Source: Parcubacteria group bacterium Gr01-1014_38 (lineage in GTDB: Bacteria; Patescibacteriota; Andersenbacteria; UBA10190; CAIZMI01). From it: DNA of 64,000 nucleotides. Under the pieces are notes generated by a model. The model did no database searches. It saw only the letters and a list, made by a program, of their open reading frames with translations, and was not told the origin of the DNA. The DNA is taken from the NCBI GenBank assembly GCA_007376145.1, contig VMFP01000004.1, positions 6,988-70,987 on the forward strand. The letters run 5' to 3'. Position numbers and translations under genes: made by a program. Positions 1,309-53,307 of this stretch are shown here, piece by piece (position 1 is the stretch's first letter; every line of letters begins with the position of its first letter).

Positions 1309-2477
1309 TCAATCTCCAGTACAAATCGTCCCTGATCCGCCTCATCTCTATAGAGGGACAAGGTACGTCCGATCAAATCTGGACGTGAGACGTATTCGCG
1401 TATAGGACCCCAACTCAAGCGCGTCATAGCGTTTCGTTGCTGATATGTACGACTGTTCGTATCGGTGCTATGCCTAATTTGTAGTGGAAACTCTCCGTAA
1501 TATATTCCTTTGATAATTAACTGAAAACGAGCCTCCGCTTCCTCCACGCTAACCGTTGCGCGAGGGGTCCACTGAAGGTGGGCAAAAGCTGCATCGCGAA
1601 AGTAGTGTCTGTGATCTATCGCTTCATCTAAAAGACCTTTATCTAGGTTTATAGAACCAGTTGCGTGCGTGCCTCTCTCATGAGGAATATTAAGATCTCG
1701 CTCTGTTAAGGCCTTGCTTTGCCAGACAAGCTCAAGATTGGTTGCGGCTTGGGTTTGAGGTTGTCCTTGGGGAACGTGGCCAACAGCTCGGCGGATTACT
1801 GGTTCTGATCGTGCACGCCGTGACGCACGAGATAGTGGTATAACATCAAGCCGAATGCGTGAAATCGGGTCATTGGAGGGCCTTGATGCGGTAACCGCGG
1901 GGCGTGGAGGCAGAGTTTCCGCCTCGTCGAGTAGGCGGCCACTGTTTTGTAATCTATCCAGCTCTAATGCACCTCGAATTATGAAAATATGTTCAGGATA
2001 TCTTCCGGGTAATTCGGTAAACTGCTCCTGAATTTCGCTGACGAATTCGCGATCGGATTGTTCATCTAGATTCAAATCGAGAGCCAAACTAGCCTCGATG
2101 TTATTGTTCAGCCCGCCGAGGGTTAGATTAGCACTGCCAACAAGCAAGCGTGCGTGTTGCGCACCTCTTGATAAATATAGCTTCGGATGAAAAATAACAC
2201 CCCGCGCTCCAGTATCTACAACGTAAACTGAAACTCCCAGTTCTAATAATCGAGCGAGTCCTTGGCGAGAGGTTATATCATTTCGTATGCCCGAGAAAAC
2301 TTTTGTTTTTGATGCGAAAGGGCGCAGATTATTTTCAATAAGACGTACCCCGTCTTCGTTTATAAAAGCAACACTAAGAACAATCTCCTCAATATCTGGA
2401 ATCTCAATTACGTGTCTGATAGCATCAATGTGATTCCGAGTTGTAAATCCCTGAAAAATAAAATCTTTACTCGCCAT
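1305..2477 (-). CDS. PLD/HKD-family nuclease, putative restriction endonuclease (BfiI/NgoAVII-like) with extra C-terminal domain
   Basis: HKD motif 'IFHPKLYLSRGAQHARLLVGSANLT' (HxK...GSxN). Most plausible start is the ATG at 2477..2475 (MASKDFIFQG); the track ORF extends further 5' into rpsI. AT-rich like the MTase. The start lies 9 nt downstream of the rpsI stop. Confidence 0.65.
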   Translation of the reverse strand: MASKDFIFQGFTTRNHIDAIRHVIEIPDIEEIVLSVAFINEDGVRLIENNLRPFASKTKVFSGIRNDITSRQGLARLLELGVSVYVVDTGARGVIFHPKLYLSRGAQHARLLVGSANLTLGGLNNNIEASLALDLNLDEQSDREFVSEIQEQFTELPGRYPEHIFIIRGALELDRLQNSGRLLDEAETLPPRPAVTASRPSNDPISRIRLDVIPLSRASRRARSEPVIRRAVGHVPQGQPQTQAATNLELVWQSKALTERDLNIPHERGTHATGSINLDKGLLDEAIDHRHYFRDAAFAHLQWTPRATVSVEEAEARFQLIIKGIYYGEFPLQIRHSTDTNSRTYQQRNAMTRLSWGPIREYVSRPDLIGRTLSLYRDEADQGRFVLEID

Positions 2478-2485
2478 GCTATCGT

Positions 2486-2914
2486 TTACCGCTTCTGCCA
2501 CTGTGGCGCCCGGCGGGCGCGCTTGAGTCCAGGCTTTTTGCGTTCCTTTTCTCGCGGGTCGCGGGTGAGCATGTCGGTGTCGCGCAGCGGTTTGCGGAAG
2601 CCTTCTTCCTGCTTTTCGAGCGCACGGGCGATGCCGAGCTTCACGGCACCAGCCTGCGCGTGAATCCCTCCGCCGCTTACCCGTACCGACACATCGAATT
2701 TTCCCCAACTGCCGGTGATCTCAAACGGCTGGCGGACGGGAGTTTGGAGTGCGACGATCGGGAAATACTCCTCCCACGGTCGCTGATTAATAAGGAAGGT
2801 CGTGGCGTCCTTGTCCTTGCCGCCACCCAAACTTCCTGCCGGGAGGAGACGCACCCGAGCGACGGCGGTTTTCCGTCTCCCCACGCCTTCAACGTACCGA
2901 GCTTGGTCAGGCAT
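2486..2914 (-). CDS. rpsI: 30S ribosomal protein S9
   Basis: Translation ends ...KKPGLKRARRAPQWQKR, which matches the S9 family along its full length. Confidence 0.95.
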   Translation of the reverse strand: MPDQARYVEGVGRRKTAVARVRLLPAGSLGGGKDKDATTFLINQRPWEEYFPIVALQTPVRQPFEITGSWGKFDVSVRVSGGGIHAQAGAVKLGIARALEKQEEGFRKPLRDTDMLTRDPREKERKKPGLKRARRAPQWQKR

Positions 2915-3345: not shown

Positions 3346-3696
3346 TTAGACGAACTCAATGAGGACTTGCGGTGCGTGATCACCACTACGGTGCGTCGGG
3401 AGTCGCGTCATGCGCGTATAGCCGCCCGGTCGGCTCCGGTACGCGTCGGCGCGTTTCAGGAGTAGCGCTGCCGCCTGGCGATTCCCGAGTGCCGCAATGA
3501 GACGTCGCCGGGACGTCAGAGTATTTGCTTTTGCGGTGGTCACGAGCGGCTCGACAAACTGCCGCACAAACTGGGCCCGTGCCGGCGTGGTGGCAATCTT
3601 TCCGTGCGTGATGAGGGCAATGCCCAGTTTCCGCGCGAGCGCTCGGCGCTCGGCAGGCGTGCGCGACAGGGTGAATTTCGCTCGACGGTGTCTCAT
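3346..3696 (-). CDS. rplQ: 50S ribosomal protein L17
   Basis: MRHRRAKFTLSRTPAERRAL… matches the L17 family; located downstream of rpoA as in the alpha operon. Confidence 0.9.
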   Translation of the reverse strand: MRHRRAKFTLSRTPAERRALARKLGIALITHGKIATTPARAQFVRQFVEPLVTTAKANTLTSRRRLIAALGNRQAAALLLKRADAYRSRPGGYTRMTRLPTHRSGDHAPQVLIEFV

Positions 3697-4775
3697 CCGG
3701 CAGAGTGTTCCTCGCGGAGGCTCACGCCGAGTTTGGTCAGCCCGCTCTCAATCTCTTCCAAGGCCTTCTCGCCAAGCCCTGGAATGCCGAGCATCTGACT
3801 CCGCGTCTTCAACACGAGCCCAGCGACGGTTTTGATACCTTCCTTCTCCAGAAGGTTCTGAATCCGGGTCGCAATGGGGAGCTCCACCACACTGGTGAGC
3901 CTGGGATCCTTCGCGAGTTCCTCCGGCGCCCGCACCGCTCCTGCAACAGCGGTCTCCACGAGACGCGCGGGCGTTTCGATCTCGGTGAGCGGCGGCACCG
4001 ATTCTCCTGGCCCTGCGGTCACAGTCAGTCGGGGGGCGACCGGTGCCTCCTCAACTGGGAGAGCTTCCCGCCGCGTGGTGAGCCGCTCGTGGACGTCGGT
4101 TGCGAGTGCTCCGAAGTGATCCTGGAGAATGGACGCGGCAGCGGACAGGGCGTCACGCGGCGTCACCGTGCCATCGGTCCGGATCGTCATGATGAGTTTG
4201 TGGTACTCCGTGATCTGGCCGACTCGCACATTTTCCACACGGAAACTTACCCGCTCTACCGGCGTAAAAATGGCGTCCACCGCAATGGTCTCTAAGGCAC
4301 GCTCTTCGTTTTCGCGCAACTCGACCGGCACGTACCCCCGACCCTGCTCAGAGGTGAGCGTCATATCCAACGTTGCCTTGTCGTCGGTGAGGTGGGCAAT
4401 CACATGGTCCGGATTCGCGATCTCCACGTTCGCGACCTTCTCAATGTCCCCCGCGGTGACCGTCCGCGCACCGGTGGCTTTGATGCGGAGCTCTACCGGA
4501 GTGTCGGTATGCAGTTTGATCCGGATGCGCTTGATGTTGAGGAGAATGCTGACGAAATCTTCCGCCACACCGGGGAGTGTGGAGAACTCGTGCTCAATTC
4601 CCTCGCAGCGGACCGCGGTAATCGCCGCCCCGGGAAGCGAGGAGAGAAGGACGCGACGCAGTGCATTGCCAACCGTCGGTCCGTATCCAGGGAAGTACGG
4701 ACTGATTTCAAACGTTGCCTCGTTCCCTTCTTCCTTCATCAGGGTGATGGTGCTGGGGAGAAGAATTTTATCCAT
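3693..4775 (-). CDS. rpoA: DNA-directed RNA polymerase subunit alpha
   Basis: N-terminal domain (…FEISPYFPGYGPTVGNALRRVLLSSLPGAA…) and C-terminal domain (…LPIATRIQNLLEKEGIKTVAGL…) typical of RpoA. Confidence 0.95.
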   Translation of the reverse strand: MDKILLPSTITLMKEEGNEATFEISPYFPGYGPTVGNALRRVLLSSLPGAAITAVRCEGIEHEFSTLPGVAEDFVSILLNIKRIRIKLHTDTPVELRIKATGARTVTAGDIEKVANVEIANPDHVIAHLTDDKATLDMTLTSEQGRGYVPVELRENEERALETIAVDAIFTPVERVSFRVENVRVGQITEYHKLIMTIRTDGTVTPRDALSAAASILQDHFGALATDVHERLTTRREALPVEEAPVAPRLTVTAGPGESVPPLTEIETPARLVETAVAGAVRAPEELAKDPRLTSVVELPIATRIQNLLEKEGIKTVAGLVLKTRSQMLGIPGLGEKALEEIESGLTKLGVSLREEHSAG

Positions 4776-7017: not shown

Positions 7018-8526
7018 TCACGGTTGGGTTGCCACGTCGATGTGGATATTCCGGCGAAGCGAGGGAATGCGCTTGATCCAGACCGGCGAGAGACGAACCT
7101 CTGCGGTGCGCACGCCGGGAATCGCGCGGAGGAACGCGGCAGCATCATCCGCGGTTCTGCCTTGGAGCCGCTCACGCAGCTCATCGAAGTTGAGACGCGG
7201 GATCAGCGGGGTTTCTGAATGGAGCGAGAACTCGGTTCTCCCGTGGTCCCAGCGCACGTCGACGACCCGAAGGTCCTCAAAGGAGCTTTTCCGGACCGGA
7301 TCTTTCTCGTTCCCGATTCGCTGCTGAAGCAGATCGGTCAGAAATGCCTGGAGCGACGCAGCATCCGCGGTGAACGCCTCGCCGCGAACCGTGGTCCGAA
7401 TTCGGAAGGACTCTGCATCGGTCCCGACGGGGGGAGAGATTTCCGCCTCGCCAACGACCACGCGAGAAAGCTCCGGGCGCGAAAAGGACACCTGCTCCTG
7501 CCTCGAATGGGGCGTGGGCGCGGTACGCGCCTCACGTTGTATGAGTTCCAGGAGTTTGCGCTCGGCGTTCTCGCGAAGTGCGGTGGTACCCCGCTCAACG
7601 TCTGTGGTCGCGAGCTGGCGCACCAGCCGGTCAGTTCCGCCGTGCAGCGGACGCACGATTTCCCCGTAGAGAAGTCGACGGGATTCTGCCGGAAGCGCGG
7701 GTATGACGAGCCGCTGCGGGTCAAGATTTGCCTTGCTGCCTCCCTCCTCCGCCCGCACGGCAACCGACGCACGGCCCAAGGCTGGAACAATGACGTCGCG
7801 CTGCGTACGCACCACCACCCCCGACGTGCCCTGGAGCCGCGTGCGTGCTTTGATCCCCTGCTGGGCCGCCGTCTGGTTCACGATGTCGACCACGCCCTCG
7901 GCACGCGCTCCTTTCTCGACGGTGGTGTGAACGGGGAATTCCTCTTCGACTGCTTCCTCGATGCGGAGGAGGCGCGCGGGGTGTGTTCCGGTATCGCGTT
8001 GAGGTTCGCGCACACTCGCATCCAGTCGCAGGGTGAGATCAGCCGCAAATGGCTCGGTCGCGAGGACGAGACGGACGCGTGCCCGCGGCACCACGAACGT
8101 CACGACGCCGGTGAGAAGCATACCAGTGAGAACTGCGAAGACCGCCAGGGTCGCACGACCCCTCGGCGTCACGATGGGAAACCGCCGCCAGGGGAGCAAA
8201 GGGAGTTCACGGGGTCCTCCGGGGAGCAGGCGCCGCCTCCGGAAACTGGAAGAACCCGCCCGCTCCCGCGGCCCACGCTGATCAGCGCTGACCGTGGCGT
8301 GCCGTACTGCACGGTCAGCGAGCTGAAAGGTAATGTCCTTTCCAAAGTCTGCAGCGGTCGCTTGGAGGAGTCGGCGGACCAGCGGATCCGCCCGCAGAAC
8401 GGGATGTTGCCGGCAGTCGATTACGACGTGCGGGGCGGGAACTCGTTGGATCTTCTCCAGGATATCCGGCAGATCATCCGAGGCGGGGATGCGTAAGACG
8501 GGTGCCGTGCTCTGACTACTTGGCAT
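7018..8526 (-). CDS. hypothetical protein with a single transmembrane helix and a large C-terminal domain (possibly PilN/PilO-like)
   Basis: Long ORF with one hydrophobic helix (LAVFAVLTGMLLTGVVTFVV). The track ORF (to 8658) overlaps the upstream gene by about 140 nt; the internal ATG at 8526 was chosen to minimise overlap, so the start is uncertain. Confidence 0.4.
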   Translation of the reverse strand: MPSSQSTAPVLRIPASDDLPDILEKIQRVPAPHVVIDCRQHPVLRADPLVRRLLQATAADFGKDITFQLADRAVRHATVSADQRGPRERAGSSSFRRRRLLPGGPRELPLLPWRRFPIVTPRGRATLAVFAVLTGMLLTGVVTFVVPRARVRLVLATEPFAADLTLRLDASVREPQRDTGTHPARLLRIEEAVEEEFPVHTTVEKGARAEGVVDIVNQTAAQQGIKARTRLQGTSGVVVRTQRDVIVPALGRASVAVRAEEGGSKANLDPQRLVIPALPAESRRLLYGEIVRPLHGGTDRLVRQLATTDVERGTTALRENAERKLLELIQREARTAPTPHSRQEQVSFSRPELSRVVVGEAEISPPVGTDAESFRIRTTVRGEAFTADAASLQAFLTDLLQQRIGNEKDPVRKSSFEDLRVVDVRWDHGRTEFSLHSETPLIPRLNFDELRERLQGRTADDAAAFLRAIPGVRTAEVRLSPVWIKRIPSLRRNIHIDVATQP

Positions 8527-9709
8527 GCCACCGCAACTGGCGTTCCTGGATGGGTTGGTATACAGCGGAAGCAGCGGGTGCATGCTCGAGTCTCCGGAGC
8601 GCAATGTCGGCAAGCTGCTCGAGGAGCGCGAAAATTGTCGCCGGGATGCGCGCGGCAATCAGGCGTGACGGATCCACCGGAGTCATCACTGGGCGCGGCA
8701 AGAGCTGAACGATGCGCGGCGCTCTCGAGAGGTACAGCGTTGGATTCCGATGGAAGAAGAGTCGGTGAAGGAGCGTCGGCCAGAACCCGGCAACCACCAG
8801 TCGCACTGGCCACTCCGAGTCCGGAAGATGCGCAAAGAAGAGTCGAACGATGGTCCGAAAGAGGGGAAAGAGCGGACGAAAGACCCGGACAAGGATCCGC
8901 ACTCCCTCCGGCGAGAGCACGCTCGCGTCAGCGCGCTCGAGCAACGTGGCCGCTTCGCGCGGTGAACAGGACAGGGCGCGCACGAGCGTTCCGACGAGAA
9001 GATCACTTCCGAGCGGCGCGGTCCGCAACATCCGCAGAATGTCGCCGTCTCGTACCACAAACGTCAGATGGGACTCTTCGCTGACAAGCAAGCCAATCGG
9101 TTCGGACGTCTTTTGGAAGATTTCGCCTAAAAACACGGGGAGGAGCACCAGGTCACAGACTGGCACATCCGGCGGCGGCAAGGATTGGAACCGCGCCGGC
9201 GTTGGCGGAACGAGAAGGGATTCACCGAAGGCCGTCGGCCCTTGGAAGAGGGTGGTGACGGTCGCTTCAAGACCGTCACCACCGCGCGCTTCCTGCCAGG
9301 GACGTACCTCTTCCCGGAAGACCGCGAGATCTTCCAGCGGGCACCCAAAAAACTCTGCAGCTTCCTCGCGGAGTTGCTCCCGCGCGTGCCAGTGGGCTTG
9401 AAGCGTCAGCTCCCGAAGGTCCAGTGCGGTTCGCCCGGTGCCGGGAAGCGCGCGACCAATCGTGACGGAACCTCCCGCCAGTGCTGGCGTCGGCACAGCC
9501 AGAACGAGCGGTTCATGTGCGTGCCAGCCGAGGAGACGTTCCAGTGGCTCTCCGAGCGCCGCACCGGATTCCCAGGGAATCGTGGCGGCAGCCAGCAGCC
9601 GATGCTGACCGTCTCGACGTTCGACCCGAAGGAGATCAAGCTCTTCTCCCCGGGTACGCCCGACGACCACGCGGTGCTCACGTTTCGTTTTCGGAGAGAA
9701 CGGGGACAT
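8516..9709 (-). CDS. hypothetical protein (possibly PilM/actin-like ATPase fold)
   Basis: 397-aa ORF whose N-terminus (VVVGRTRGEELDLLRVERRDG..HRLLAAATIP) loosely resembles PilM/FtsA-type N-termini. No firm motif was recognised. Confidence 0.45.
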   Translation of the reverse strand: MSPFSPKTKREHRVVVGRTRGEELDLLRVERRDGQHRLLAAATIPWESGAALGEPLERLLGWHAHEPLVLAVPTPALAGGSVTIGRALPGTGRTALDLRELTLQAHWHAREQLREEAAEFFGCPLEDLAVFREEVRPWQEARGGDGLEATVTTLFQGPTAFGESLLVPPTPARFQSLPPPDVPVCDLVLLPVFLGEIFQKTSEPIGLLVSEESHLTFVVRDGDILRMLRTAPLGSDLLVGTLVRALSCSPREAATLLERADASVLSPEGVRILVRVFRPLFPLFRTIVRLFFAHLPDSEWPVRLVVAGFWPTLLHRLFFHRNPTLYLSRAPRIVQLLPRPVMTPVDPSRLIAARIPATIFALLEQLADIALRRLEHAPAASAVYQPIQERQLRWHAK

Positions 9710-11529: not shown

Positions 11530-11889
11530 TTACCGTGACCGTTGGAACGCTTCCTCGCGTAAGGAATTGACGTCGCGCTCGAGCCGCGAGATCTTCGCTT
11601 TCTGCCCTGCGACGCGGTGCTCCAATTCTTGAAGCGCCCGCTCCCGATCCCGTTGCCGTTGCTCGAGTTGCAGCATCTCCGTTTCTTTTCGCTCCCGGTC
11701 TCGCCGGATTCGCGCAACCTCCTCCTTCCGCTGTCGCTCATCACCAAGCAGACGCGAAAGAGCTTCGCGCTCTTCCGCAAGCTCTAATTCCTTTTTCTGG
11801 TACTTCGACCGACGCTCGCGCGCGGAGGGCTTTCCCCCGCGGTCTCCAAATGGAGCTTCCTCGTCCGATCCACTCCAGACCTTTGACAT
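11530..11889 (-). CDS. coiled-coil protein (Glu/Arg-rich heptad-like region)
   Basis: ATG at 11889 (MSKVWSGSDEE…), followed by a long charged coiled-coil segment (ELELAEEREALSRLLGDERQRKEEVARIRRDRERKETEMLQLEQRQRDRERALQELEHR). Confidence 0.5.
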   Translation of the reverse strand: MSKVWSGSDEEAPFGDRGGKPSARERRSKYQKKELELAEEREALSRLLGDERQRKEEVARIRRDRERKETEMLQLEQRQRDRERALQELEHRVAGQKAKISRLERDVNSLREEAFQRSR

Positions 11890-11938
11890 GAGGCTATCGT
11901 ACAGACGCTCGTTGCGAGCGTACAGAGCGCCCGACAGC

Positions 11939-12694
11939 CTAAAAAAACTTGCGCTCTTTGGATTGCTCAATAATCGGCAGTGCTTCTTCCGCGGAATCCA
12001 CGATGGTAAACACCTCGAGATCGAATGCGTCAATGAGCGGGGGATCGTGTTCGATCATGAAGGTGCGCATCCACTCCCGGAATGGTTCCCAAAACGTCTT
12101 CCCGATGCAGATGATGGAAATTTTCTCCATCTTCTTCGTCTGGACGAGCGTAGCAATTTCCGTCATTTCGTCGAGTGTGCCGAATCCCCCGGGAAAAAAT
12201 ACGTACGCCTGCGCCGACGCAGAGAGCATGACCTTCCGGGTGAAGAAGTAATCAAACGCCATTCGTTTTCGGACGTACGGATTGCGTCGCTCTCCTTCCG
12301 GAAGATTAATGTCGATACCGACAGAGCATTCTTCGACCGTTCCTTGGCACCCCTCGAGTGCGCCTTTGTTTGCTGCCTCCATGATGCCGGGACCTCCCCC
12401 GGTGATCACCGTATACCCGCGCTCGGTCAGAAGTCGCCCGAGTTTCTCCGCCTCGTGATACCAGGGATCTCCGGCCGGAATGCGCGCGCTGCCGAAAAAC
12501 GTCACCTCCCGTTTGAGCGGAAGGAGAAAGCGGAACCCCTCCACAAACTCTCGGAGAATTTCATCCAGGTGCCACGTTTCGTCGCCCTGAAATTCGTTCG
12601 GGTCCAAGCAGATGAGCGGCCGCGGGCCTTCCTGCGGCGGAGGCGGCACGGGAGGCGGTAACGGACCGATATGTTCTTGGTCTCTCGTGCCCAT
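11939..12694 (-). CDS. LOG-family (TIGR00730) Rossmann-fold nucleotide-binding protein
   Basis: Motifs GGGPGIMEAANKGA and PGGFGTLDE are typical of the LOG / lysine-decarboxylase-like family. Confidence 0.85.
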   Translation of the reverse strand: MGTRDQEHIGPLPPPVPPPPQEGPRPLICLDPNEFQGDETWHLDEILREFVEGFRFLLPLKREVTFFGSARIPAGDPWYHEAEKLGRLLTERGYTVITGGGPGIMEAANKGALEGCQGTVEECSVGIDINLPEGERRNPYVRKRMAFDYFFTRKVMLSASAQAYVFFPGGFGTLDEMTEIATLVQTKKMEKISIICIGKTFWEPFREWMRTFMIEHDPPLIDAFDLEVFTIVDSAEEALPIIEQSKERKFF

Positions 12695-12697
12695 TGC

Positions 12698-14497
12698 TTA
12701 CACGTGGAGCCCGCCAAGCGGAGGGGGTGGCAGAGGAGGGGGCTGGACGCGCACGCGGCCTGACGCGATCGGGGATCGTCCCTGCTCCGCTCCACGCGCG
12801 CCGAGCTTGAAACGCTTGCGTTCGGCACGAACAATCGCCAAACACTCCGGGCAGTACTTTTCCTTCCCAGGAACTGGCTCAAAGGGAACCTCCGTTGCCC
12901 GTCCGCACCGATCGCAGGTGATGGGGTACGCCCGCTTCAGACGCTGCGGCTCTTCCTGTCGGAGACGATCCTCGAGACTCGCGATCTGCTGACCAGACGG
13001 CGCCACGACGGCGTTCTCCAAGGCTTCAACGGGCGGGAGCGCGCGCTCGGGCGTTCGTGTGTGTGGTCGAGGAAATTCTCGACGTTCACTGTGGTCGGAA
13101 CGTTGCTGTTCTTGGCGCCGCTCGAAGGTATAGGCGGCGGATTCTTCCTCCCCGGCTTGTCGGAAGGTCTTGGAACTCCACCGACTAATCTTCTCTTCCA
13201 CAACTTCACGGGGGCGACCATGGCGCTCTCGTGAAACCCGGATGATCTTCTCCGCTTCCCCGTACCATGGGGATCGTGAGCCGAGAGGAATCGTCATCAT
13301 GGAAAACGGCTTGCTCGCGGTCCCGTCAATCATGAGCTTGATGTAGGCATTGTACTTGTCGAGGTTCACGAGATCCGTTTCCGTAAAGTGCGGAGCGAAT
13401 TCCCGCTCGAGGAACTCCGCATCGTAGGCGCCAATTCGGAAGCACAGGGTGGTTCCCACGTTCCCGAAGACGGCGTCGCGCACTTCCTCTGACATCTGGG
13501 TAATGTACTGATGCGCCATGATGATATCCAGGCGGTACTTCCGAGCTTCGCTCAAAATAGTCGCAAACGACTCCGTGGCAAAATTCTGGAACTCGTCTAC
13601 GTACAGGTAGAAATCCTGACGCTGTTCCTCGGGAAGCTGCGCGCGGTCCATGGCGGCCAGTTGAATCTTCGTAATCATCATTGCCCCGAGGAGCGCGGCG
13701 TTGTCTTCTCCAATCTTCCCTTTTGAGAGATTCATGATGAAGACTTTTTTCTGGTCCATAATCTCCCGGAGATCAATGGTGGAGTTGGGCTGACCAATGA
13801 TGTTCCGGATGATGCTGCTCGTCAGAAACTGTCCGACTTTGTTTTGGATCGGGGCAATCGCCTCCTGGCGGAACCGCTCGTTGTACTGTGCGAATTCGTC
13901 CACCCAGAATGACTTCACAACGGGATCGCGGATGTTCGAGACAATCTCCTTCCGAAAGTCCTTGTCCACGAGAATCCGCAGGATACCGAGGAGCGTGTTC
14001 CCCGGCGAGTCCAGGAGGGCCAAAATGGTATTCCGGAGAATGTATTCGAGCCGGGGTCCCCACGAATCAGCCCAGAGCTTCTTGAAGACACCGACGAGAC
14101 CCGACGTAACGAGGTTTTTCTCCTGGGCGAAACGGGAGTCCTCCGGGCGGACCGTTTCTAGGACGTTGAAGGCGACGGGGAACTCCGCGTCTGACGGATC
14201 AAAGTAAATAACGTCGTTGATGCGGTTCGGTGATACGTAGTCGAGCATCGTGGTGGCAAAGTCCCCATGGGGATCAACAACTGCCAACCCCTCGCCGTGC
14301 TGAATATCTTGGATCGCCATGTTCTCGAGGACCGTCGTCTTTCCGGACCCAGTTTTTCCAATGACGTAGAGGTGTCGGCGGCGATCATCGCGCTTAATCC
14401 CGAATGCGCGCCGGACATTACGAAAGTTGGTTTCGCCGACAACCGTGATAAGTTCTGGTGAGACGGTAGGGCTCATGTGTGCGTTCCCAGTATACAA
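12698..14497 (-). CDS. TrwB/VirD4/TraD-like (DUF87-type) P-loop ATPase with C-terminal zinc ribbon
   Basis: Walker A VIGKTGSGKTT and Walker B-like LYVDEFQNF. C-terminal C-x2-C…C-x2-C (ITCDRCGRATEV…KYCPECL) precedes a Pro-rich tail. No N-terminal TM segment. Confidence 0.8.
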   Translation of the reverse strand: MYTGNAHMSPTVSPELITVVGETNFRNVRRAFGIKRDDRRRHLYVIGKTGSGKTTVLENMAIQDIQHGEGLAVVDPHGDFATTMLDYVSPNRINDVIYFDPSDAEFPVAFNVLETVRPEDSRFAQEKNLVTSGLVGVFKKLWADSWGPRLEYILRNTILALLDSPGNTLLGILRILVDKDFRKEIVSNIRDPVVKSFWVDEFAQYNERFRQEAIAPIQNKVGQFLTSSIIRNIIGQPNSTIDLREIMDQKKVFIMNLSKGKIGEDNAALLGAMMITKIQLAAMDRAQLPEEQRQDFYLYVDEFQNFATESFATILSEARKYRLDIIMAHQYITQMSEEVRDAVFGNVGTTLCFRIGAYDAEFLEREFAPHFTETDLVNLDKYNAYIKLMIDGTASKPFSMMTIPLGSRSPWYGEAEKIIRVSRERHGRPREVVEEKISRWSSKTFRQAGEEESAAYTFERRQEQQRSDHSERREFPRPHTRTPERALPPVEALENAVVAPSGQQIASLEDRLRQEEPQRLKRAYPITCDRCGRATEVPFEPVPGKEKYCPECLAIVRAERKRFKLGARGAEQGRSPIASGRVRVQPPPLPPPPLGGLHV

Positions 14498-14500
14498 GAG

Positions 14501-15838
14501 TTAGCCCTCCTCCAGCGGAGCAAACGGAACTTCCGGCGGCGGTTCACCTTTCTTTGCACGCGCGTGCTCAAGCGTGGGTGTCCGGACGTAACTCACCGGG
14601 AAGTGGAAAATGGTCGCGAGTTCTTCCACGTTCAAAATGTATCCCTTCTCGCGAAAGTATCGCTGCTGGTACCGCCGGAGCAAGCGGCGTTTCCGGAAGC
14701 GCTGCCGCTGCGCGCTTAAGCCATAGACGGGACGGGAGGTCGTAAACCGCCCATCGGGAAACAGGGTATTCAAGTTCTGCGACCCGAACGGCCTGAAGAT
14801 ACCAAAGATCTGTGGAATGCGGGCGCGGCGGATAAACTTCCCTTTGAGACCAATGGCCAAGGTCCGGATGATGCAGCCGTACCCCGACTTGCTCACGTTC
14901 CGCTGAATGGCGCGGACGATATCCGTCTCTCCCGGGGTAAGCCGGAGCATGCCAAGGTCCAGCGCCGAGGGTCGCTTCGCTTCCACTGCCGGTCCGGGAA
15001 GAAAGATGCCAACGACTGTTCCCAGGAACCCCAGCACCCGCTGGACTCGTGAGGGCTTTTTCTTGATGGCGCTCTCCTTGCCGGCCAGTTTCAGCGCCAG
15101 CTCCTCTCCCCTTTTTTGCCAGTCGCCGCGTGCAATGCCGGGAAGCTTGAGGCTGGGAATCTCTGGTCGAAAGAGAATCTGAATCCAGATTTCCTCACCA
15201 AGATTGAGCGCGCTCACGACTTCGGTCACCGCGGCCATCGTGTCCACAAACCGACCGTCCTCCGCAAATTCGTCTTCAAAATCTACGTAGGTTCGAAGGG
15301 GATAGGCATCGGGTTTGAGGAGAATCATCTCCGTCCCCCAAAGGTCGAAGTCTTTCCCGAGATCCGAGAGGGAGAACCGTTGAGTGTAGTCCTCCGTCTC
15401 GACAATCTCCGCGTCGGGGTACTGCGCGTACACCGCACTTTCAAAAAGTTGGCGAATGGCGGTAGGAATGCGGAAGATGAACGTGACGCCTTCGGACGTT
15501 CCGCGAATCTCCAGAGAGAACCATGCATGCATATACCCGTCGAGGTAGAGGTCGTAGAGGTCGGGAGGGCGAAATGCGCCGTGGAGAACATTGAAAACTT
15601 CCTCCATGGAGCGCGGAGTGCGCGTGTTCAGCTCCGGCACCCGCACCTGGAGAAAGGTCCACGGAAACGCCGCAAGGTACTGCCGCCGAATCGTCTCCAG
15701 GTACAGGGAAAACAGGATCATCAGGAAGAGCACGAGTCCGACAGCCGGACCGATGCGGACGAGTGCGACACCCAAAAACGCCGCGAAGTTCCCGGTGGCG
15801 TTCAGCAGAGTGGCGAGGAGAAGATCGAGGAGCGGCAT
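14501..15838 (-). CDS. membrane protein (two N-terminal TM helices), partner of the adjacent ATPase
   Basis: Hydrophobic N-terminus ([21 protein letters not shown]…[14 protein letters not shown]), then a soluble domain of about 380 aa. Separated from the ATPase gene by 4 nt. Confidence 0.6.
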
Positions 15839-15862
15839 GTTGGTGTGGAGACGGCCGAGAAG

Positions 15863-17089
15863 TTACGAAGTCGGTGACGGCCTCGGCTCTGGCGACGGCT
15901 GGCGCGGCGCAGTGCGGAGCGTCTCGGCGAGCGTATAGGTTCCGTCCGGCAGGTGGTGGAAGAACGAGCGATTTACGAGACAGAGGAGCACGGTGTTGCG
16001 CTTCACGAAGCGCTGCTTCAAGACTTCCGCGACGATCTCGGACTTCGGAAGCGGCCGGTGCGCTTCTCGGAGAAGACGGATAATCACATCCGATACGCGT
16101 CCCGGCATGAAGCCCCATTCGCGGAGGGCATAGAGCCCGCGCCCAACGAGCACAAACCGGGGGTCGCGGATGAGATCGTTGTGCACCGTTCCGGCCAATG
16201 CGCGCTTCCGATCAAACCGCATGCGATTGATCTCATCGGCGACGGTGCGAAAATGGAGCGGTTTACTCTGGGCTTTCAACACGAGGTACGCCTTATCGCC
16301 GACGCTCCGAGGGACAGCCGCCCGCCACGCACGGAGACCGAAGTCCCCGAACGGATTCCGAACAATTCTCTTGGAGACAGTGAGGAACGACCGGAGCATG
16401 GCATCGGTCACGGGAACGTCGAGGATACGCCGCAGCTCGTCAAGGTACCGGGACTCGGGAGCAAGCGCTCCTTCACGCTCCAAAATCCGTTCTCCTGCCT
16501 CCAGGACCGTTTCGAGCGACGGTCCAACTGGCGTCGAACTGTCGGGTGCCGGCTCCATCCCATTCCGCGATGTGGTGCGGGCGGTGGCGATCCAGTGCGG
16601 CCGGGTTCGCTGCGTCTCCTGCGCTTCCGAGAAATCCGGGAAGGATGACAGGAGAAAGCGTACAGCGCTCCGGTCTTTCGCTTCCCCACCCCCAAGGGAG
16701 GCGAGAAGCGTCTCTTCCGTCGTCACCCCGCCGGACGATGTACAGAGCGACAGGAGAATACGGCGTGCGCGTTCGCGCGCCGTCCCTTTCGGTGGAGAAT
16801 CGGCGCGCAGTGTGTAGAGAGCACCCGCGACGATTTGCCGGATGCGCTCACGGGAAACTCCCTCTCGTTTGCCGATGTCCACGAGAGTTTTCGGACGACC
16901 GTTTCCGAGACCGAAGCGCTCGGCAAGCATGCGCTGCGGGCGCTCCGGCAGAAGGGCAAGCAATTCCTGAATGGCAGCGCGAACGGTACCTGGTTCCAAT
17001 TCTGTGGCGAGCGGTGCCAAGGCAGCAGACACCGCATTCCCCTCCTCACTCTGAAGGCGAGTACTTCGCGTCATCACGTCTGCGGTCAC
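15863..17089 (-). CDS. sigma-70 region-4-like HTH fused to a C-terminal HARE-HTH/winged-helix-like domain
   Basis: N-terminal LPERPQRMLAERFGL…KTLVDIGKREGVSRERIRQIVAGALYTL resembles sigma region 4. C-terminal …FRTVADEINRMRFD…RFVLVGRGLYALREWG resembles HARE-HTH. Confidence 0.55.
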   Translation of the reverse strand: MTADVMTRSTRLQSEEGNAVSAALAPLATELEPGTVRAAIQELLALLPERPQRMLAERFGLGNGRPKTLVDIGKREGVSRERIRQIVAGALYTLRADSPPKGTARERARRILLSLCTSSGGVTTEETLLASLGGGEAKDRSAVRFLLSSFPDFSEAQETQRTRPHWIATARTTSRNGMEPAPDSSTPVGPSLETVLEAGERILEREGALAPESRYLDELRRILDVPVTDAMLRSFLTVSKRIVRNPFGDFGLRAWRAAVPRSVGDKAYLVLKAQSKPLHFRTVADEINRMRFDRKRALAGTVHNDLIRDPRFVLVGRGLYALREWGFMPGRVSDVIIRLLREAHRPLPKSEIVAEVLKQRFVKRNTVLLCLVNRSFFHHLPDGTYTLAETLRTAPRQPSPEPRPSPTS

Positions 17090-17131
17090 GTTTCTTTATA
17101 GGCGTCAGTATGACACAGAATGTTTCGCTAG

Positions 17132-18043
17132 TCAACCAGCGGTATCGTGTGGGAGCACCACGATTTCCTTCTCGAGGGAAATACCGAACGCTTCAAGGAC
17201 CTCTCGTTCAATCTGCTTGATGAGCGCAAGAACATCCGTCGCCGTGGCGCCACCGCGGTTCACGATAAAATTTGCGTGCTTGACCGACACCTCGGCACCA
17301 CCGATCCGACGCCCCTTGAAGCCTGCCGCCTCAATGAGTGCTCCGGCTGGACGTTCTACCGACGGGTTCTTGAAGACGGAGCCGACGCTGGGAAATTCGT
17401 AGGGCTGCTTCGCCTTTCGGGCCGCGAGGTCGTCATTCACGAGACGTTCTCCTTCCTCTGGATTACCAGCATCCAAGGAAAATGTGGCGTTCCAAATGAC
17501 GTAGCCGGCCGGTTCCCGCTTGAACGTGGAGTCGCGGTAGCCAAAGGACAGTTGTTCGCGGGGAAGAACATCCTCGTGCCAACCCTCCGGAGTCAAGCGC
17601 AGCACGCCCACCTTGGAGAGGCGGTCTTTCGTCTCCACGCCAAAGGCACCGGCATTCCCTCGGACCGCTCCGCCGATCGTTCCCGGAATGCCCGCGAGGC
17701 GCTCCAGACCCCGGAAGCTACGGCGGACGGCCTCGATGACCGCAAGGCGCGTGAGCGCACCGGCGTCCGCCGTGAGTTCTCCGGTGCCCGGAACGCTCCC
17801 GGGGGTCAGGGTCACGGATCGGCTCTCGATCCTGATGACCAGACCTGGAAACCCTTCATCCCGACAGAAGAAGTTTGCTCCCCCGCCAAGGATGAACCAC
17901 GGGAGATCGCGGTCGGCTGCCCAGTTGAGCGCAGCACGGAGCACTTCAAGATCGGCAATGCGGACGAAGTACCGCGCCTCACCCCCGACGTGGAGCGTCG
18001 AATACCGCGCAAGCGAGACGTGCTCCTGGACGTCCATCGACAT
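17132..18043 (-). CDS. murB: UDP-N-acetylenolpyruvoylglucosamine reductase
   Basis: FAD-binding MurB N-terminus (YSTLHVGGEARYFV) and MurB C-terminal domain. Confidence 0.9.
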   Translation of the reverse strand: MSMDVQEHVSLARYSTLHVGGEARYFVRIADLEVLRAALNWAADRDLPWFILGGGANFFCRDEGFPGLVIRIESRSVTLTPGSVPGTGELTADAGALTRLAVIEAVRRSFRGLERLAGIPGTIGGAVRGNAGAFGVETKDRLSKVGVLRLTPEGWHEDVLPREQLSFGYRDSTFKREPAGYVIWNATFSLDAGNPEEGERLVNDDLAARKAKQPYEFPSVGSVFKNPSVERPAGALIEAAGFKGRRIGGAEVSVKHANFIVNRGGATATDVLALIKQIEREVLEAFGISLEKEIVVLPHDTAG

Positions 18044-26002: not shown

Positions 26003-26572
26003 CTACGTCGGGGATCCGGGAGCGGACGATCCGTCTGCCGCTTCGGTAAGCGTCGTCATACCGGCGTGCGCATGGAGCTGCGCGTAGTCGGGAAGCTCGT
26101 CCACCGCAGTCACCCCGAGATGTCGGAGGAACTCCGCGCTCACCTGGTACACGAACGAGCGCCGATCCTTCGGGTGGGGCTCACGGGTGACCAGCCCGCG
26201 GAGCGCTAAGAGTCGCAAGGTGAAGGAGGAATTCACGCCCCGGATCGCCTCAATGCCGGCGCGACTGATGGGGCCCCGGTAGGCAATGAGAGCGAGCGTT
26301 TCGGCTGCCGCTGGCGTCAGCCGCTCCCGAATGCTGTGAGTGACAAATGCCTCGACTGCTTCGTGTGCCTCGGGGACGGTCACGAGCTGAACGCCTTCGG
26401 GAGAGCGAAGGAGACGAATGCCGGTGGCCGTGGCCTCGTACCGCTTCTCGAGGGCGGTCAGCGCACCGCGAAGGCCTTCCTGCGAAACATTGAACGCGCG
26501 CGCCAGCGTGAGCAACGGCACCGGCTCGCCCGCGACAAAAAGCGCTGCTTCGAGTTGCGTCGAGAGTTCCAT
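26003..26572 (-). CDS. scpB: segregation and condensation protein B
   Basis: ScpB winged-helix tandem (LEAALFVAGEPVPL…). Confidence 0.85.
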   Translation of the reverse strand: MELSTQLEAALFVAGEPVPLLTLARAFNVSQEGLRGALTALEKRYEATATGIRLLRSPEGVQLVTVPEAHEAVEAFVTHSIRERLTPAAAETLALIAYRGPISRAGIEAIRGVNSSFTLRLLALRGLVTREPHPKDRRSFVYQVSAEFLRHLGVTAVDELPDYAQLHAHAGMTTLTEAADGSSAPGSPT

Positions 26573-26575
26573 ACC

Positions 26576-27328
26576 CTATTCCGCCTGCTCCGTCGGGCGT
26601 GTCACCAGTATATCGTGAAAGGCTTGAGGCTGCTCGACCGCCACGAGACGCTGTTTCACGAGCTCGAGAAGCGCAAGAAAGGACACGATCACGTCCAACT
26701 TTGACGTGGTGGAGGACCGCACGATCTCAAACGTGATCCGCGCGTGCTCGGTCAGCCGCTGCTGGATATCCCGGATCCGCTCTTCGATGGATACCACACG
26801 GCGGAGGACGTCCTGCGGGAGGACGTCGAGCCGCGGCAGATTCTGGAGAACGGTATCCATGGCGGCTCGGAGCGACGGGAGATCAACGTTCGACGGGGGA
26901 TAAAAGGTCACGGTGAGTCCAAGAAAACTCTCGCGCGCGTAGGAAACCAGACCTTGGTTCCACCGCTGGAGAAACGTCCGAGCGGCATCGCGAAACCTCC
27001 GGTACTCGCGCAGTTGCTCTTCCAGCGATGCGATGGATGCCTCCTCTTCTTCGCTCAAGGGAAGCTCCGGGAAAAGCTTTCGGCTCTTTAAGAGCAGGAG
27101 CGTTGCCGCCACCACGAGGAACTCGGCGAGGTGCTCGGGGGGAAGGTCGCTGACGCTGCGCAGACGCGCGAGATACTGGTCCGTTACCGAGGCGAGTGAA
27201 ATGGCGTTCACGTCGAGCTTGCCCTCCTCGATGAGGGACAACAGAAGATCAAGCGGGCCGCTGAAGCCAGGGACCGAGACGGGGTGAAGCGTGTACGGAG
27301 TTTCGGGGTCCGGGAGATCGTGTTCCAT
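26576..27328 (-). CDS. scpA: segregation and condensation protein A
   Basis: ScpA/kleisin N-terminal (FSGPLDLLLSLIEEGKLDVNAISLASVTDQYL). Confidence 0.85.
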   Translation of the reverse strand: MEHDLPDPETPYTLHPVSVPGFSGPLDLLLSLIEEGKLDVNAISLASVTDQYLARLRSVSDLPPEHLAEFLVVAATLLLLKSRKLFPELPLSEEEEASIASLEEQLREYRRFRDAARTFLQRWNQGLVSYARESFLGLTVTFYPPSNVDLPSLRAAMDTVLQNLPRLDVLPQDVLRRVVSIEERIRDIQQRLTEHARITFEIVRSSTTSKLDVIVSFLALLELVKQRLVAVEQPQAFHDILVTRPTEQAE

Positions 27329-52684: not shown

Positions 52685-52692
52685 GCCCCCAC

Positions 52693-53307
52693 ATGCGCCG
52701 AACGGTCGCGGCAACTCTTCTGACGGTGGGAGGTGGACTGCTGGCATTTTTCTCAAGTGACCAGTTTCCGTCCAGGGAGTACGTGCTGAACTTTTCCGAC
52801 GAGCGTGACCTCGCCGTTCTTACCTCAATCCAAGGTATCCCCTTCTCTGTCTCGGACGGGCACGTCACCGTCACCGAACCGCTCGCACAGCTCCGCCTCC
52901 CCTTCGGAAAAACCGTTCTCGGGAAGCGACTGGTGTTCCGCGCCCGATTCCGGGCGGATGCAGCCGCCGAGGTTGCCATCGGCGTGAAGAAAGGCACGTT
53001 TTGGCTCGACTACGAGCGGCAATCGTTGTTTGCCGCCGGTTCGGAGGAGCGCGGAGCGAATGCCGACTGGATCGAAGGAGAACGACAGTTTGACTTGAGC
53101 CCCGCATATCTTGCGCCTGACGGATCGCTTGAGCTGATGTTCTTCGTGAAGTATGCGGAGGAACAGCCGCGCCTTGTGCTGGACGAACTGCGGCTCCGTG
53201 TAGAATCTAGCGCACCGAATCTCCGAACGCTCGTCCACCGAGTCCGCAGCCAGGCCGCGCGCCTCATCCGGCGACCGCCGGTGACATCGCTCATCCCAGT
53301 GCCGTGA
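52693..53307 (+). CDS. hypothetical protein with N-terminal membrane anchor (204 aa)
   Basis: ATG at 52693 (MRRTVAATLLTVGGGLLAFF…). Coupled to the next ORF by a GTGA overlap. Confidence 0.5.
   Translation: MRRTVAATLLTVGGGLLAFFSSDQFPSREYVLNFSDERDLAVLTSIQGIPFSVSDGHVTVTEPLAQLRLPFGKTVLGKRLVFRARFRADAAAEVAIGVKKGTFWLDYERQSLFAAGSEERGANADWIEGERQFDLSPAYLAPDGSLELMFFVKYAEEQPRLVLDELRLRVESSAPNLRTLVHRVRSQAARLIRRPPVTSLIPVP

Follow-up and report, generated by a model that had tools for sequence, protein, structure and literature searches.

Type IV coupling proteins and their relatives

Type IV coupling proteins (T4CPs) of the VirD4/TraD/TrwB type, for instance TrwB of R388, DotL of Legionella and Cag-beta of H. 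pylori, contain a P-loop motor, which belongs to the FtsK/HerA superfamily and carries an all-alpha insertion between the Walker A and Walker B motifs, as well as a membrane anchor N-terminal to the motor and a C-terminal extension that is available for binding adaptors or substrates. Actinomycetes such as Embleya NBC_00896 (plasmid protein WP_331738717.1) and Streptomyces sp. BHT-5-2 (p1) possess 'long' T4CPs, in which a transmembrane segment, a DUF8128-like domain and the motor are combined in single polypeptides of 812-817 aa. These proteins are encoded inside plasmid TrbL/PrgI/VirB4/relaxase/NlpC-P60 conjugation clusters, and the gene order on the Embleya plasmid is TrbL-like, PrgI, VirB4-like, the 812-aa T4CP, Replic_Relax and NlpC/P60. 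VirB4/TrwK, to which VirB3 is often fused or adjacent, has the same layout of a membrane-proximal N-domain and a RecA-like motor, with about 800 aa in total.

Recently, a survey of 3,035 Patescibacteria genomes recorded T4CP homologues in 2,918 of them, in most cases at a large distance from virB4, whereas VirB4 was present in 2,417 genomes, and the Patescibacterial T4CPs have been flagged as possibly exapted (Quinonero-Coronel et al. 2025, PMC12102498). They occur about twice per genome and belong to a 'Patescibacteria-enriched core family', and in Southlakia epibionticum one of them adjoins SEML1_0294, a gene for a sigma_r4 and HARE-HTH protein (PMC12102498; Wang et al. 2023, PMC10633639). 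Here, we describe a related locus in a 64,000-nucleotide stretch (the window) of the draft assembly of Parcubacteria bacterium Gr01-1014_38, which belongs to the class Andersenbacteria. A first-pass annotation had considered it to be no described secretion, competence or defence system. This statement was too strong because the T4CP homologues had already been counted, and both the HTH and the T4CP-like homologues of Southlakia appear in published Tn-seq tables.

Gene organisation of the locus

The locus contains five co-directional ORFs on the minus strand, as previously annotated. The 408-aa protein encoded at 15863..17089 combines sigma-70 region 4, a HARE-HTH domain and a C-terminal winged helix (referred to as sigHARE; Pfam and NCBIfam matches). 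It is followed after 24 nt by the gene for a 445-aa DUF8128 protein (14501..15838) and by the gene for a soluble 599-aa ATPase (12698..14497). The spacer between the latter two genes is 3 nt with the TTG start at 14497 or 24 nt with the annotated ATG at 14476. After a further 3 nt, a 251-aa LOG protein is encoded at 11939..12694 (TIGR00730, 133.9 bits versus a cut-off of 96.35), and 49 nt separate its gene from that of a highly charged, helical coiled-coil protein of 119 aa (11530..11889; G01um101438_494, annotated as hypothetical protein), half of whose residues (50%) are charged. AlaRS follows after 9 nt. A consensus scan identified a candidate promoter-like site, TTGACT-17-CATACT with a TG element, in the spacer between MurB and sigHARE (17107..17135).

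The MurB/MurC/MurG genes upstream and AlaRS downstream are packed equally tightly in the same direction and, therefore, close spacing by itself does not set five genes apart as a module. The neighbourhood is indeed conserved across Patescibacteria for the sigHARE, DUF8128 and ATPase genes, but not for the other two. The LOG gene adjoins the module only in close relatives (L001-L005), the coiled-coil protein belongs to a database cluster of 2 sequences and no homologue of it was detected in 80 loci. A 167-aa version of the latter ORF (TTG at 12033) overlaps the LOG gene and is absent from databases. Thus, the conserved unit comprises only three of the five genes; the LOG and coiled-coil genes are lineage-specific, lie outside of it and count, together with the Mur genes and AlaRS, as synteny passengers. 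The linkage to the Mur genes is also lineage-specific, and SecDF or LeuRS is found upstream of the module elsewhere.

Two probable halves of a long coupling protein

The ATPase matches the Pfam families TrwB_AAD_bind (PF10412, 38.4 versus 20.5 bits), T4SS-DNA_transf (PF02534, 28.5 versus 20.1), TraG-D_C (PF12696, 25.3 versus 22) and DUF87 above their cut-offs. The VirD4-like CD1115 family is matched with an E value of 8e-14, but the protein misses all NCBIfam equivalog cut-offs by a wide margin (for CD1115, 51 versus 250). In the PDB, the best sequence matches are TrwB and DotL, and a direct alignment with TrwB covers 319 residues (23% identity, E 1e-9). A Foldseek search with the structural model, which is of mediocre quality (pLDDT 64; below 50 for residues 303-395), retrieved DotL (1.9e-7), Cag-beta and HerA, in this order. 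The earlier assignment of the ATPase as coupling-protein-like is thereby borne out. In the region of the Walker A motif GKTGSGKT (residues 47-54; 14336..14359), G47, K48, T49, G50, G52, K53 and T55 are invariant (alignment A2). In the same alignment, L298-F306 are invariant in the Walker B region YLYVDEF (residues 297-303; 13589..13609), whose motif reads YVDEFQNF. Eight helices are modelled between the two motifs (residues 123-248), corresponding to the all-alpha insertion. Further parts of the protein are a charged linker, a C-terminal zinc ribbon and a tail rich in Pro, which ends in PPPLPPPPL. The treble-clef zinc ribbon CxxC-x17-CxxC (C528/C531/C549/C552; 12842..12916; zf_Tbcl_2, PF23477 and TIGR04272 matches), whose four cysteines are invariant in alignment A2, is an addition with respect to VirD4/TrwB proteins. 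It is not family-wide: 34 of 60 split ATPases possess it, as do none of 120 fused proteins, and poly-Pro tails occur only in an Andersenbacteria-like clade.

A Kyte-Doolittle scan detected no hydrophobic segment in the ATPase. In the DUF8128 protein, the same type of scan revealed a stretch at residues 6-51 (15686..15823) and a marginal one at residues 268-286. The former is probably a two-helix membrane hairpin, for which its length is sufficient, and in the AF2 model (pLDDT 78) residues 2-57 are predicted as one long helix. The protein was unmatched in the Pfam copy that was scanned, but an identical database protein carries PF26449 (DUF8128). This domain of about 380 aa is lacking in TrwB, and the anchor encoded in the window is a separate polypeptide. 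Since the missing anchor of the motor is provided by the upstream membrane protein, the reading as a split coupling protein, which had been proposed beforehand, holds; judged by sequence, the two proteins appear to be the halves of one long T4CP.

The split reading is further sustained by natural fusions. The two genes adjoin in 62 of 71 Patescibacterial loci (87-89%), the adjacent ATPase being missing in about 10% of loci, and single fused proteins of about 850-930 aa occur in paralogues and in other lineages. DUF8128-motor fusions were found in three loci (L030, L110 and L111) and in more than 120 database proteins; the 120 proteins that best match the fused form in the database range in length from 751 to 904 aa, and PF26449 is found in all of them and PF10412 in 116. 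A single HSP with a fused 856-aa paralogue (820 residues, 34% identity) runs across the gene boundary in the window, and the fission point coincides exactly with the linker of the fused relatives. Two Patescibacterial paralogue clades exist. The sigma-r4/HARE-HTH gene is linked to clade A, whose members may be fused or split, while those of clade B are always fused and have a small upstream ORF. In L110 and L111, the fused form directly follows the HTH gene, and its motor domain shares 49-52% identity with the split clade versus 41-43% with clade B. The T4CPs counted by Quinonero-Coronel et al. (2025) and the proteins SEML1_0293 and SEML1_0142 (Wang et al. 2023) very probably represent the same two families, the HTH-linked copy of S. 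epibionticum being a fused protein of 921 aa.

Moreover, sequence comparisons indicate that the whole arrangement is homologous to the T4CPs of actinomycete conjugative type IV secretion system (T4SS) clusters. The motors share 30-33% identity, and the DUF8128 profile detects the N-domains of the Embleya and Streptomyces proteins with 51 and 48 bits, respectively, whereas 500 shuffles per sequence gave at most 2.4 bits. An hhalign comparison of DUF8128 with the actinomycete N-domain extends over 298 columns (E 1.3e-4). However, the actinomycete proteins have neither a zinc ribbon nor a sigma-r4/HARE-HTH neighbour. A Foldseek search with the DUF8128 model yielded TrwK chains as the top three hits (E 1.4e-3, probability 0.98, TM 0.31-0.35), but at the sequence level hhalign gave a probability of 0.6% for VirB4/TrwK and HMMER no match. 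This model-based resemblance is a lead only, and the motor in the window resembles T4CPs more closely than VirB4.

The sigHARE protein

The sigHARE protein contains a Sigma70_r4 domain (residues 43-95, E 4.6e-10) with the canonical region 4.2 motif (RFGL...TL.EIG...TRERVRQIE) and a HARE-HTH domain (residues 264-325, E 5.5e-11). It lacks sigma regions 1-3 and so cannot be a sigma factor. The HARE-HTH fold is shared with the RNA polymerase delta subunit (RpoE), but sigHARE scores below the cut-off for delta (33.5 versus 42), contains additional winged-helix domains and is devoid of the acidic tail. Its gene is located directly upstream of the DUF8128 gene in 54 of 70 loci, and a reciprocal test confirmed the linkage in 15 of 18 cases. 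In Southlakia, Tn-seq revealed that the homologue SEML1_0294, a Patescibacteria-enriched core family, is essential and that the adjoining T4CP-like gene SEML1_0293 is not (Wang et al. 2023, PMC10633639); orthology to the genes in the window was assigned by domain architecture and synteny. Therefore, no single indispensable function is common to the two genes, and their linkage could be a matter of regulation or simply of synteny.

Possible functions of the module

The best explanation, which we regard as fairly probable, is that the split long T4CP is a membrane-anchored motor with an HTH partner that acts independently of a T4SS. The membrane hairpin and DUF8128 would make up the first half and the VirD4/TrwB-type P-loop motor with its all-alpha insertion the second. 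By analogy to TrwB and VirD4, both polypeptides may assemble into a membrane-anchored hexamer. At the membrane, this hexamer would engage a nucleic acid or nucleoprotein as its substrate and move it at the expense of ATP. Binding of the substrate or of an adaptor could fall to the zinc ribbon and the basic, Pro-rich tail, comparable to the C-terminal tails of TraD and DotL. The HTH protein would be co-expressed and may be a DNA-targeting adaptor or a regulator, with a wider, essential and probably RNA polymerase-associated role. In Gr01-1014_38, the motor most likely operates in the absence of a classical T4SS channel, although it would then be left without a known channel partner.

Alternatively, the module could be an ordinary coupling protein of a Patescibacterial monoderm-type T4SS that is encoded elsewhere, working only with a VirB4/VirB6 channel. 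The homologous T4CPs sit inside real conjugative clusters, about 80% of Patescibacteria have T4SS genes, and virB4 and the T4CP genes are often widely separated. However, we regard this as unlikely because only 148 of 5,713 Patescibacterial T4CP genes are near virB4 (PMC12102498), the T4SS of Southlakia is essential while SEML1_0293 is not, and Gr01-1014_38 is listed without VirB4, albeit as a draft assembly. Moreover, VirB4-less genomes retain 1-3 t4cp1 matches each. No T4SS genes were found within ±10 kb of the module in about 110 loci, and VirB4, PrgI and VirB6 had no matches across 1.47 Mb of loci. Across Patescibacteria, the pair belongs to the core genome beside the HTH gene, usually remote from secretion machinery. 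Unlike in VirD4/TrwB systems, the genes lie on the chromosome, belong to the core genome and are very conserved, with no relaxase genes nearby; the motor has a median identity of 56% across Patescibacterial classes versus 49% for AlaRS, which is atypical for conjugative T4CPs. A motor for the uptake of environmental or host DNA, analogous to ComFA, archaeal Ced/Ted or Helicobacter ComB, would fit the T4CP-type DNA motor with zinc ribbon and basic tail as well as the natural competence of Patescibacteria and their dependence on imported nucleotides. Yet, it is improbable: com and pilin genes are absent from the window and from the flanks of the module, transformation of Southlakia needs ComEC, which is not essential, the weak P-loop match to the DNA-translocating ATPase CedD is limited to residues 20-91, and no feature points to a direction of transport.

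The combination of Sigma70_r4 with an RNA polymerase delta-type HARE-HTH domain, the phylum-wide linkage and the essential Southlakia homologue would also be compatible with a motor acting on transcription complexes. In this case, sigHARE would be an RNA polymerase accessory subunit (a sigma flap-binding module plus a delta fold) and the ATPase would remodel or tether RNA polymerase-DNA complexes, loosely like delta with HelD. As action on RNA polymerase is not known for any T4CP and the two genes differ in essentiality, this option is improbable as well. An FtsK-like translocase for chromosome segregation or division is highly improbable, even though MurG-MurC-MurB are encoded immediately upstream of the module, ScpA is encoded at 26576-27328 and the motor is a member of the FtsK/HerA superfamily. 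Southlakia has a canonical, essential FtsK (4TM, alpha, motor and gamma), while its HTH-linked T4CP-like gene is dispensable, ftsK is also present in TM7x, a Pfam search of the window ATPase gave no FtsK_SpoIIIE or gamma-domain match and the mur linkage is restricted to a lineage. The partition role that had been suggested for the locus is disfavoured because of the canonical FtsK in this cultured relative. Finally, a novel system including the LOG and coiled-coil genes, or an anti-phage defence module of the MADS/HerA type, was suggested by the tight spacing of five genes and by matches to PADLOC mad8 (E 3e-16) and, more weakly, to HerA. It is effectively refuted by the neighbourhood analysis, and its probability is close to nil: the two additional genes are confined to close relatives, the module is part of the core genome, with vertical inheritance and high conservation, and its neighbours are housekeeping genes with no other defence genes among them.

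The previous studies list the genes only; DUF8128, the splitting into two genes, the link to the HTH gene and the two-clade structure are not described there (PMC12102498; PMC10633639). Taken with these features, the module is most likely a split, chromosomally fixed T4CP variant, which would provide Patescibacteria with a membrane-anchored nucleic-acid or nucleoprotein motor.

Gene order and conservation of the module

The module is embedded among housekeeping genes on the minus strand of the window, where co-directional and tightly spaced genes encode, in this order, MurG, MurC, MurB, an HTH protein (408 aa; 15863-17089), a DUF8128 membrane protein (445 aa; 14501-15838), a motor ATPase (599 aa; 12698-14497), a LOG protein (251 aa; 11939-12694), a charged coiled-coil ORF (119 aa; 11530-11889) and AlaRS. 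In a database comparison, the ATPase matched G01um101438_496 and the membrane protein G01um101438_497 of Gr01-1014_38 with 100% identity; the assembly of this genome, GCA_007376145.1, has been assigned to the GTDB class Andersenbacteria (PMC12102498, Table S1). The domain assignments of the first-pass annotation were confirmed: the HTH protein contains Sigma70_r4 and HARE-HTH domains, the ATPase matches the models for type IV coupling proteins (T4CPs) and carries a zinc ribbon, and the LOG protein matches TIGR00730 (133.9 bits with a cut-off of 96.35; Lysine_decarbox, E 3e-24).

A profile search with the membrane protein yielded 80 loci that represent many lineages of the Patescibacteria. The ATPase gene is located directly downstream of the DUF8128 gene in 62 of the 71 evaluable loci, and in an additional locus (L074) the two genes overlap. 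The HTH gene directly precedes the DUF8128 gene in 54 of 70 loci, and in a reciprocal metagenome search with the HTH protein, 15 of 18 evaluable loci had DUF8128 on the downstream side. Thus, the conserved unit consists of the HTH, DUF8128 and motor genes. The earlier proposal that five genes form a functional unit was rejected after the locus comparison: the LOG gene adjoins the module only in the closest relatives (database loci L001-L005), and no homologue of the coiled-coil ORF, which is annotated as a hypothetical protein with 50% charged residues and whose database cluster has two members, was detected among the 80 loci. The window protein is a true member of the LOG family, yet it lies outside the conserved module. 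Moreover, the flanks vary, with MurB in the window and SecDF or LeuRS in other loci, and AlaRS is often found a few kb downstream. The 42-nt spacer between MurB and the HTH gene contains a consensus match to a sigma-70-like promoter (TTGACT-17-CATACT with an extended TG; 17107-17135, minus strand), and this candidate would provide the HTH, DUF8128 and motor genes with their own promoter.

The motor is a type IV coupling protein homologue

The motor scores above the Pfam gathering thresholds of all three T4CP models (TrwB_AAD_bind, T4SS-DNA_transf and TraG-D_C), and DUF87 was found as well. TrwB and DotL ranked best in a sequence search of the PDB, and a tblastn comparison with TrwB gave 23% identity over 319 residues (E 1e-9). 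The question of whether the motor resembles TrwB, HerA or FtsK was addressed with Foldseek, which placed the T4CPs DotL and Cag-beta on top and HerA below them, and the FtsK_SpoIIIE model remained silent. The AF2 model of the motor has a pLDDT of 64 and is good only to about residue 300, and we relied on its N-terminal two thirds; the low confidence at residues 303-395 is due to an alignment that is too shallow and too similar. The model contains an all-alpha insertion of eight helices (residues 123-248, block pLDDT 65-89) between Walker A (47-54) and Walker B (297-303), and the motor is therefore predicted to possess the all-alpha domain of TrwB. The protein falls outside the characterised equivalogs TraD_Ftype, SXT_TraD, CD1115 and TOL TraD (19-51 bits with cut-offs of 250-647).

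The motor is unusually conserved, with a median identity to proteins from other classes of 56%, compared to 49% for AlaRS and 37.5% for MurB; DUF8128 and the HTH protein reach 33-34%. Its zinc ribbon is a CxxC-x17-CxxC treble clef, which is present in 34 of 60 split motors. The poly-Pro tail is confined to the Andersenbacteria-like clade. Many other split ATPases (L006, L007, L013, L014, L018, L029, L030, L036 and L037, among others) end in '...KPG(Q/E)VIKF' instead, and further ones terminate in a 'DLxxLRxxLxE' helix. In the window, a stretch at 12630-12760 encodes two poly-proline ends, PPPLPPPPL at the end of the motor and PLPPPVPPPP at the start of the LOG protein, the genes being 3 nt apart, and a conserved GEPPxxxP motif also ends the DUF8128 protein. 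These proline-rich ends may reflect short linear motifs that the proteins have in common, or the base composition of a C-rich tract.

A coupling protein split into two genes

A hydrophobicity scan did not detect a hydrophobic segment in the motor, which excludes an N-terminal transmembrane anchor on the same protein, and found a segment of hairpin length at residues 6-51 of the DUF8128 protein. The membrane anchor is provided in trans by DUF8128, and fused relatives show that both proteins represent the same unit. Indeed, some loci carry a second copy with DUF8128 and the motor joined in one polypeptide (856 aa; L030:1560-4130), which spans the window gene boundary in one HSP with 34% identity over 820 residues. 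The best 120 database relatives of this fused protein all have 751-904 aa and PF26449, and PF10412 is present in 116 of them. The gene boundary in the window coincides exactly with the linker: it separates the conserved end of DUF8128 ('...ELATIFHFP...AKKGEPPxxxP') from the start of the motor ('ITVVGETNFR'). Together with the adjacency of the two genes, these data lend good support to the former suggestion of a split coupling protein.

The Patescibacterial relatives fall into two paralogue groups. Clade A is linked to the HTH gene and either split or fused, the fused and split members being 49-52% identical in the motor domain; for instance, in L110 and L111 the HTH gene is immediately followed by a fused form of about 880-930 aa. 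All members of clade B are fused; a small ORF that lacks a Pfam match precedes them, their motor domains are 41-45% identical to those of clade A, and the zinc ribbon is absent from all 120 clade B proteins. In three clade B loci (L030:1057-4130; L085 9409-12586; L086 9499-12544), the protein has about 850 aa and lacks the ribbon, and an ORF of 163-193 aa without a Pfam match and a divergent CorA gene are located upstream.

At the junction in the window, the DUF8128 stop codon TAA is followed, after one codon, by the TTG start of the motor in the same frame, and GGAGGAGG is located just upstream (14497-14503). The in-frame arrangement is also present in the two closest relatives (L001 7994-8001; L004 7997-8001) and could mark a recent fission. 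Programmed read-through of the TAA was rejected: among 71 loci, both genes are in the same frame in 29, a share that does not clearly exceed one third.

Origin of the pair from monoderm conjugation

DUF8128 corresponds to PF26449, for which a precomputed match exists for the identical database protein P0121 and for all relatives; a local Pfam copy without this model gave no match for 27 family members even at E 10. At E<=1e-3, 3,780 representative clusters belong to the family. A tblastn search over plasmids identified 523 records with a relative of the motor, of which 418 are typed as non-mobilizable. The closest case with full context is an Embleya linear plasmid, on which an 812-aa T4CP is encoded with a VirB4-like ATPase on one side and a relaxase of the Replic_Relax type on the other, in a cluster that also carries TrbL-like, PrgI and NlpC/P60 genes. 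The DUF8128 profile matched the N-terminal 420 residues of this T4CP with 51 bits and those of a Streptomyces homologue with 48 bits, whereas 500 shuffles of each sequence reached a maximum of 2.4 bits, and hhalign aligned DUF8128 and the actinomycete N-domain over 298 columns (E 1.3e-4). Thus, DUF8128 is the domain next to the membrane in a class of 'long' T4CPs (membrane anchor, DUF8128 and motor) that acts in genuine monoderm conjugation. The window pair is a fissioned member of this class and descends from conjugative T4CPs. The close relatives of the motor are not all long T4CPs. Those of Bradyrhizobium p131_1 (L089 7026-9152, 708 aa) and of a Sulfitobacter plasmid (L088 7992-9179, 395 aa) are 32-38% identical and have no DUF8128-like N-domain; they reside on non-mobilizable plasmids, with CHAT/TPR genes or transposases as neighbours.

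For a model of the membrane partner (pLDDT 78), Foldseek ranked TrwK/VirB4 chains first, but sequence methods did not support this match: hhalign and HMMER comparisons of DUF8128 with TrwK/VirB4 were empty. Thus, a possible homology of DUF8128 to the N-domain of VirB4/TraC stays a structural lead. A search of the PDB with the DUF8128 profile returned chance matches alone.

The HTH protein and data from Southlakia

The HTH protein contains Sigma70_r4 alone and no sigma region 2, and all NCBIfam sigma models match only residues ~30-98, far below their cut-offs. The RNAP delta subunit (RpoE) model TIGR04567 scored 33.5 bits with a cut-off of 42. The delta subunit has an acidic C-terminal tail, whereas the C-terminus of the window protein is Pro-rich. 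The protein joins the RNAP-flap-binding module of sigma, a delta-subunit fold and two or more winged helices.

Tn-seq data are available for Southlakia epibionticum ML1, whose genes we infer to be orthologous to those of the window from their architecture and synteny. SEML1_0294 (349 aa, Sigma70_r4 and HARE-HTH, annotated as 'RpoS') is essential at every time point (PMC10633639). The gene directly downstream, SEML1_0293, encodes 921 aa with TrwB_AAD_bind at 402-719 and is non-essential; normalised reads for it decreased from 5817 to 2940 and 1372 while those of the neighbouring genes were flat (PMC10633639). These data show that the essential function of the HTH protein is wider than serving the motor. 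Moreover, the essential genes include a second T4CP-like one, SEML1_0142 (1019 aa), together with the small ORF that precedes it (PMC10633639); SEML1_0141 and SEML1_0142 are presumably the counterparts of the small ORF and the clade B gene.

Alternative assignments

The strongest competing view is that the pair serves a type IV secretion system (T4SS), as its ancestry might suggest. No association with a T4SS (VirB4) or a relaxase was found within the window, and homologues of VirB4, PrgI and VirB6 were absent within ±10 kb of about 110 loci (1.47 Mb searched). A phylum-wide survey detected T4CP homologues in 2,918 of 3,035 genomes and VirB4 in only 2,417 (PMC12102498); each genome has about two T4CP homologues, as would fit one each from clades A and B. 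Only 148 of 5,713 T4CP genes were near virB4, and the authors raised a possible exaptation; the 1.03-Mb genome of Gr01-1014_38 was scored 'No' for VirB4 (Table S1), and other VirB4-less genomes retain 1-3 t4cp1 matches (PMC12102498). This evidence points away from a role as a T4SS component in the window organism. The window pair is a fissioned, chromosomally fixed long T4CP that is probably independent of a T4SS. The view of the first-pass annotation that the array is undescribed is not supported: T4CP homologues had already been recorded across the phylum and their exaptation suggested (PMC12102498).

Among other DNA-translocating ATPases, FtsK/SpoIIIE is not supported by the window proteins, none of which matched PF01580, PF13491 or PF09397 (motor, 4TM and gamma). 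A query with the E. coli FtsK motor revealed no FtsK gene in 1.36 Mb of Patescibacterial loci, which is uninformative because about one match was expected. The Southlakia data argue against an FtsK-like role, as a canonical FtsK (SEML1_0096) is present and essential in this organism (PMC10633639), and ftsK also occurs in TM7x. In the case of HerA-NurA, the generic DUF87 P-loop region alone matches and no nuclease gene adjoins the module. A MADS defence system was considered since the mad8 profile matches the ATPase (E 3e-16), with a faint mad3 match to the same protein (E 0.0063, no stretch passing alone); a defence system was rejected because the other four proteins gave no mad match and the context is one of housekeeping genes.

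Other features of the window

Several regions outside the module are noteworthy. Positions 1-2708 have a GC content of 45% compared to about 60% and encode an Eco57I-type methyltransferase C-domain protein (82-1308, plus strand) and a PLD-like protein (1305-2708, minus strand); the region is probably a horizontally acquired restriction-modification island beside rpoA (3693-4775). Two ORFs of 546 and 397 aa without a Pfam match, overlapping as listed, are located downstream of AlaRS (7018-9709); at the same position, L001 and L004 have ORFs of similar size (479 aa, and 433 aa with a weak Baseplate_J match) without a strong match. ScpA (segregation and condensation protein A; 26576-27328) is encoded about 9 kb upstream of the module, past the mur/mraY genes, and adjoins a 189-aa ORF (26003-26572). 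Furthermore, four large ORFs without a Pfam match (44906-46780, 624 aa; 48696-51173, 825 aa; 51200-52756, 518 aa; 60982-63486, 834 aa) are found in or beside a glycosyltransferase, Wzy and polysaccharide-synthesis cluster (28.8-48.8 kb), some of which may be shadow ORFs because the sequence is GC-rich.

A possible mechanism and its meaning

TrwB and VirD4 are hexamers, and the C-terminal tails of TraD and DotL bind the DNA-binding adaptor TraM or adaptor proteins. For the module, the analysis establishes which parts it has, that its coupling protein is fissioned, that its genes are linked throughout the phylum and that the pair stems from conjugative T4CPs. By analogy with the systems above, DUF8128 would anchor a hexameric motor at the membrane, and the zinc ribbon and the basic or Pro-rich tail of the motor would bind nucleic acid or an adaptor. 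With energy from ATP hydrolysis, the motor could then engage or translocate a substrate made of nucleic acid or nucleoprotein. The HTH protein may serve the motor as a DNA-targeting adaptor or as a regulator, or it may be an RNAP factor in its own right that simply shares the transcript. That clade A constitutes an autonomous, T4SS-independent membrane pump or tether for nucleic acids, coupled to an essential RNAP-binding sigma-r4/HARE-HTH factor, is a speculative and rather unlikely reading.

Patescibacteria account for much of bacterial diversity, and most of their core 'enriched' gene families lack an explanation. Two such families are now identified: DUF8128 provides a long T4CP with its membrane domain, and the motor that goes with it is the 'orphan' T4CP homologue. 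They are encoded by one gene or two, and throughout the phylum the pair is linked to a sigma-r4/HARE-HTH protein that is essential. We consider this of moderate interest because two Patescibacteria-enriched core families are tied to a testable machine. The annotation can also be corrected, as a 'CxxC-x17-CxxC domain protein' and a 'hypothetical protein' are halves of one machine. Moreover, the vague notion of a possibly exapted T4CP is turned into hypotheses that are testable in the genetically tractable Southlakia. If the pump or tether reading were true, a conjugation motor would have been exapted into the core housekeeping of ultra-small epibiotic bacteria, for instance, to transport DNA or RNA towards or away from the membrane that faces the host, or to anchor and clear transcription complexes.
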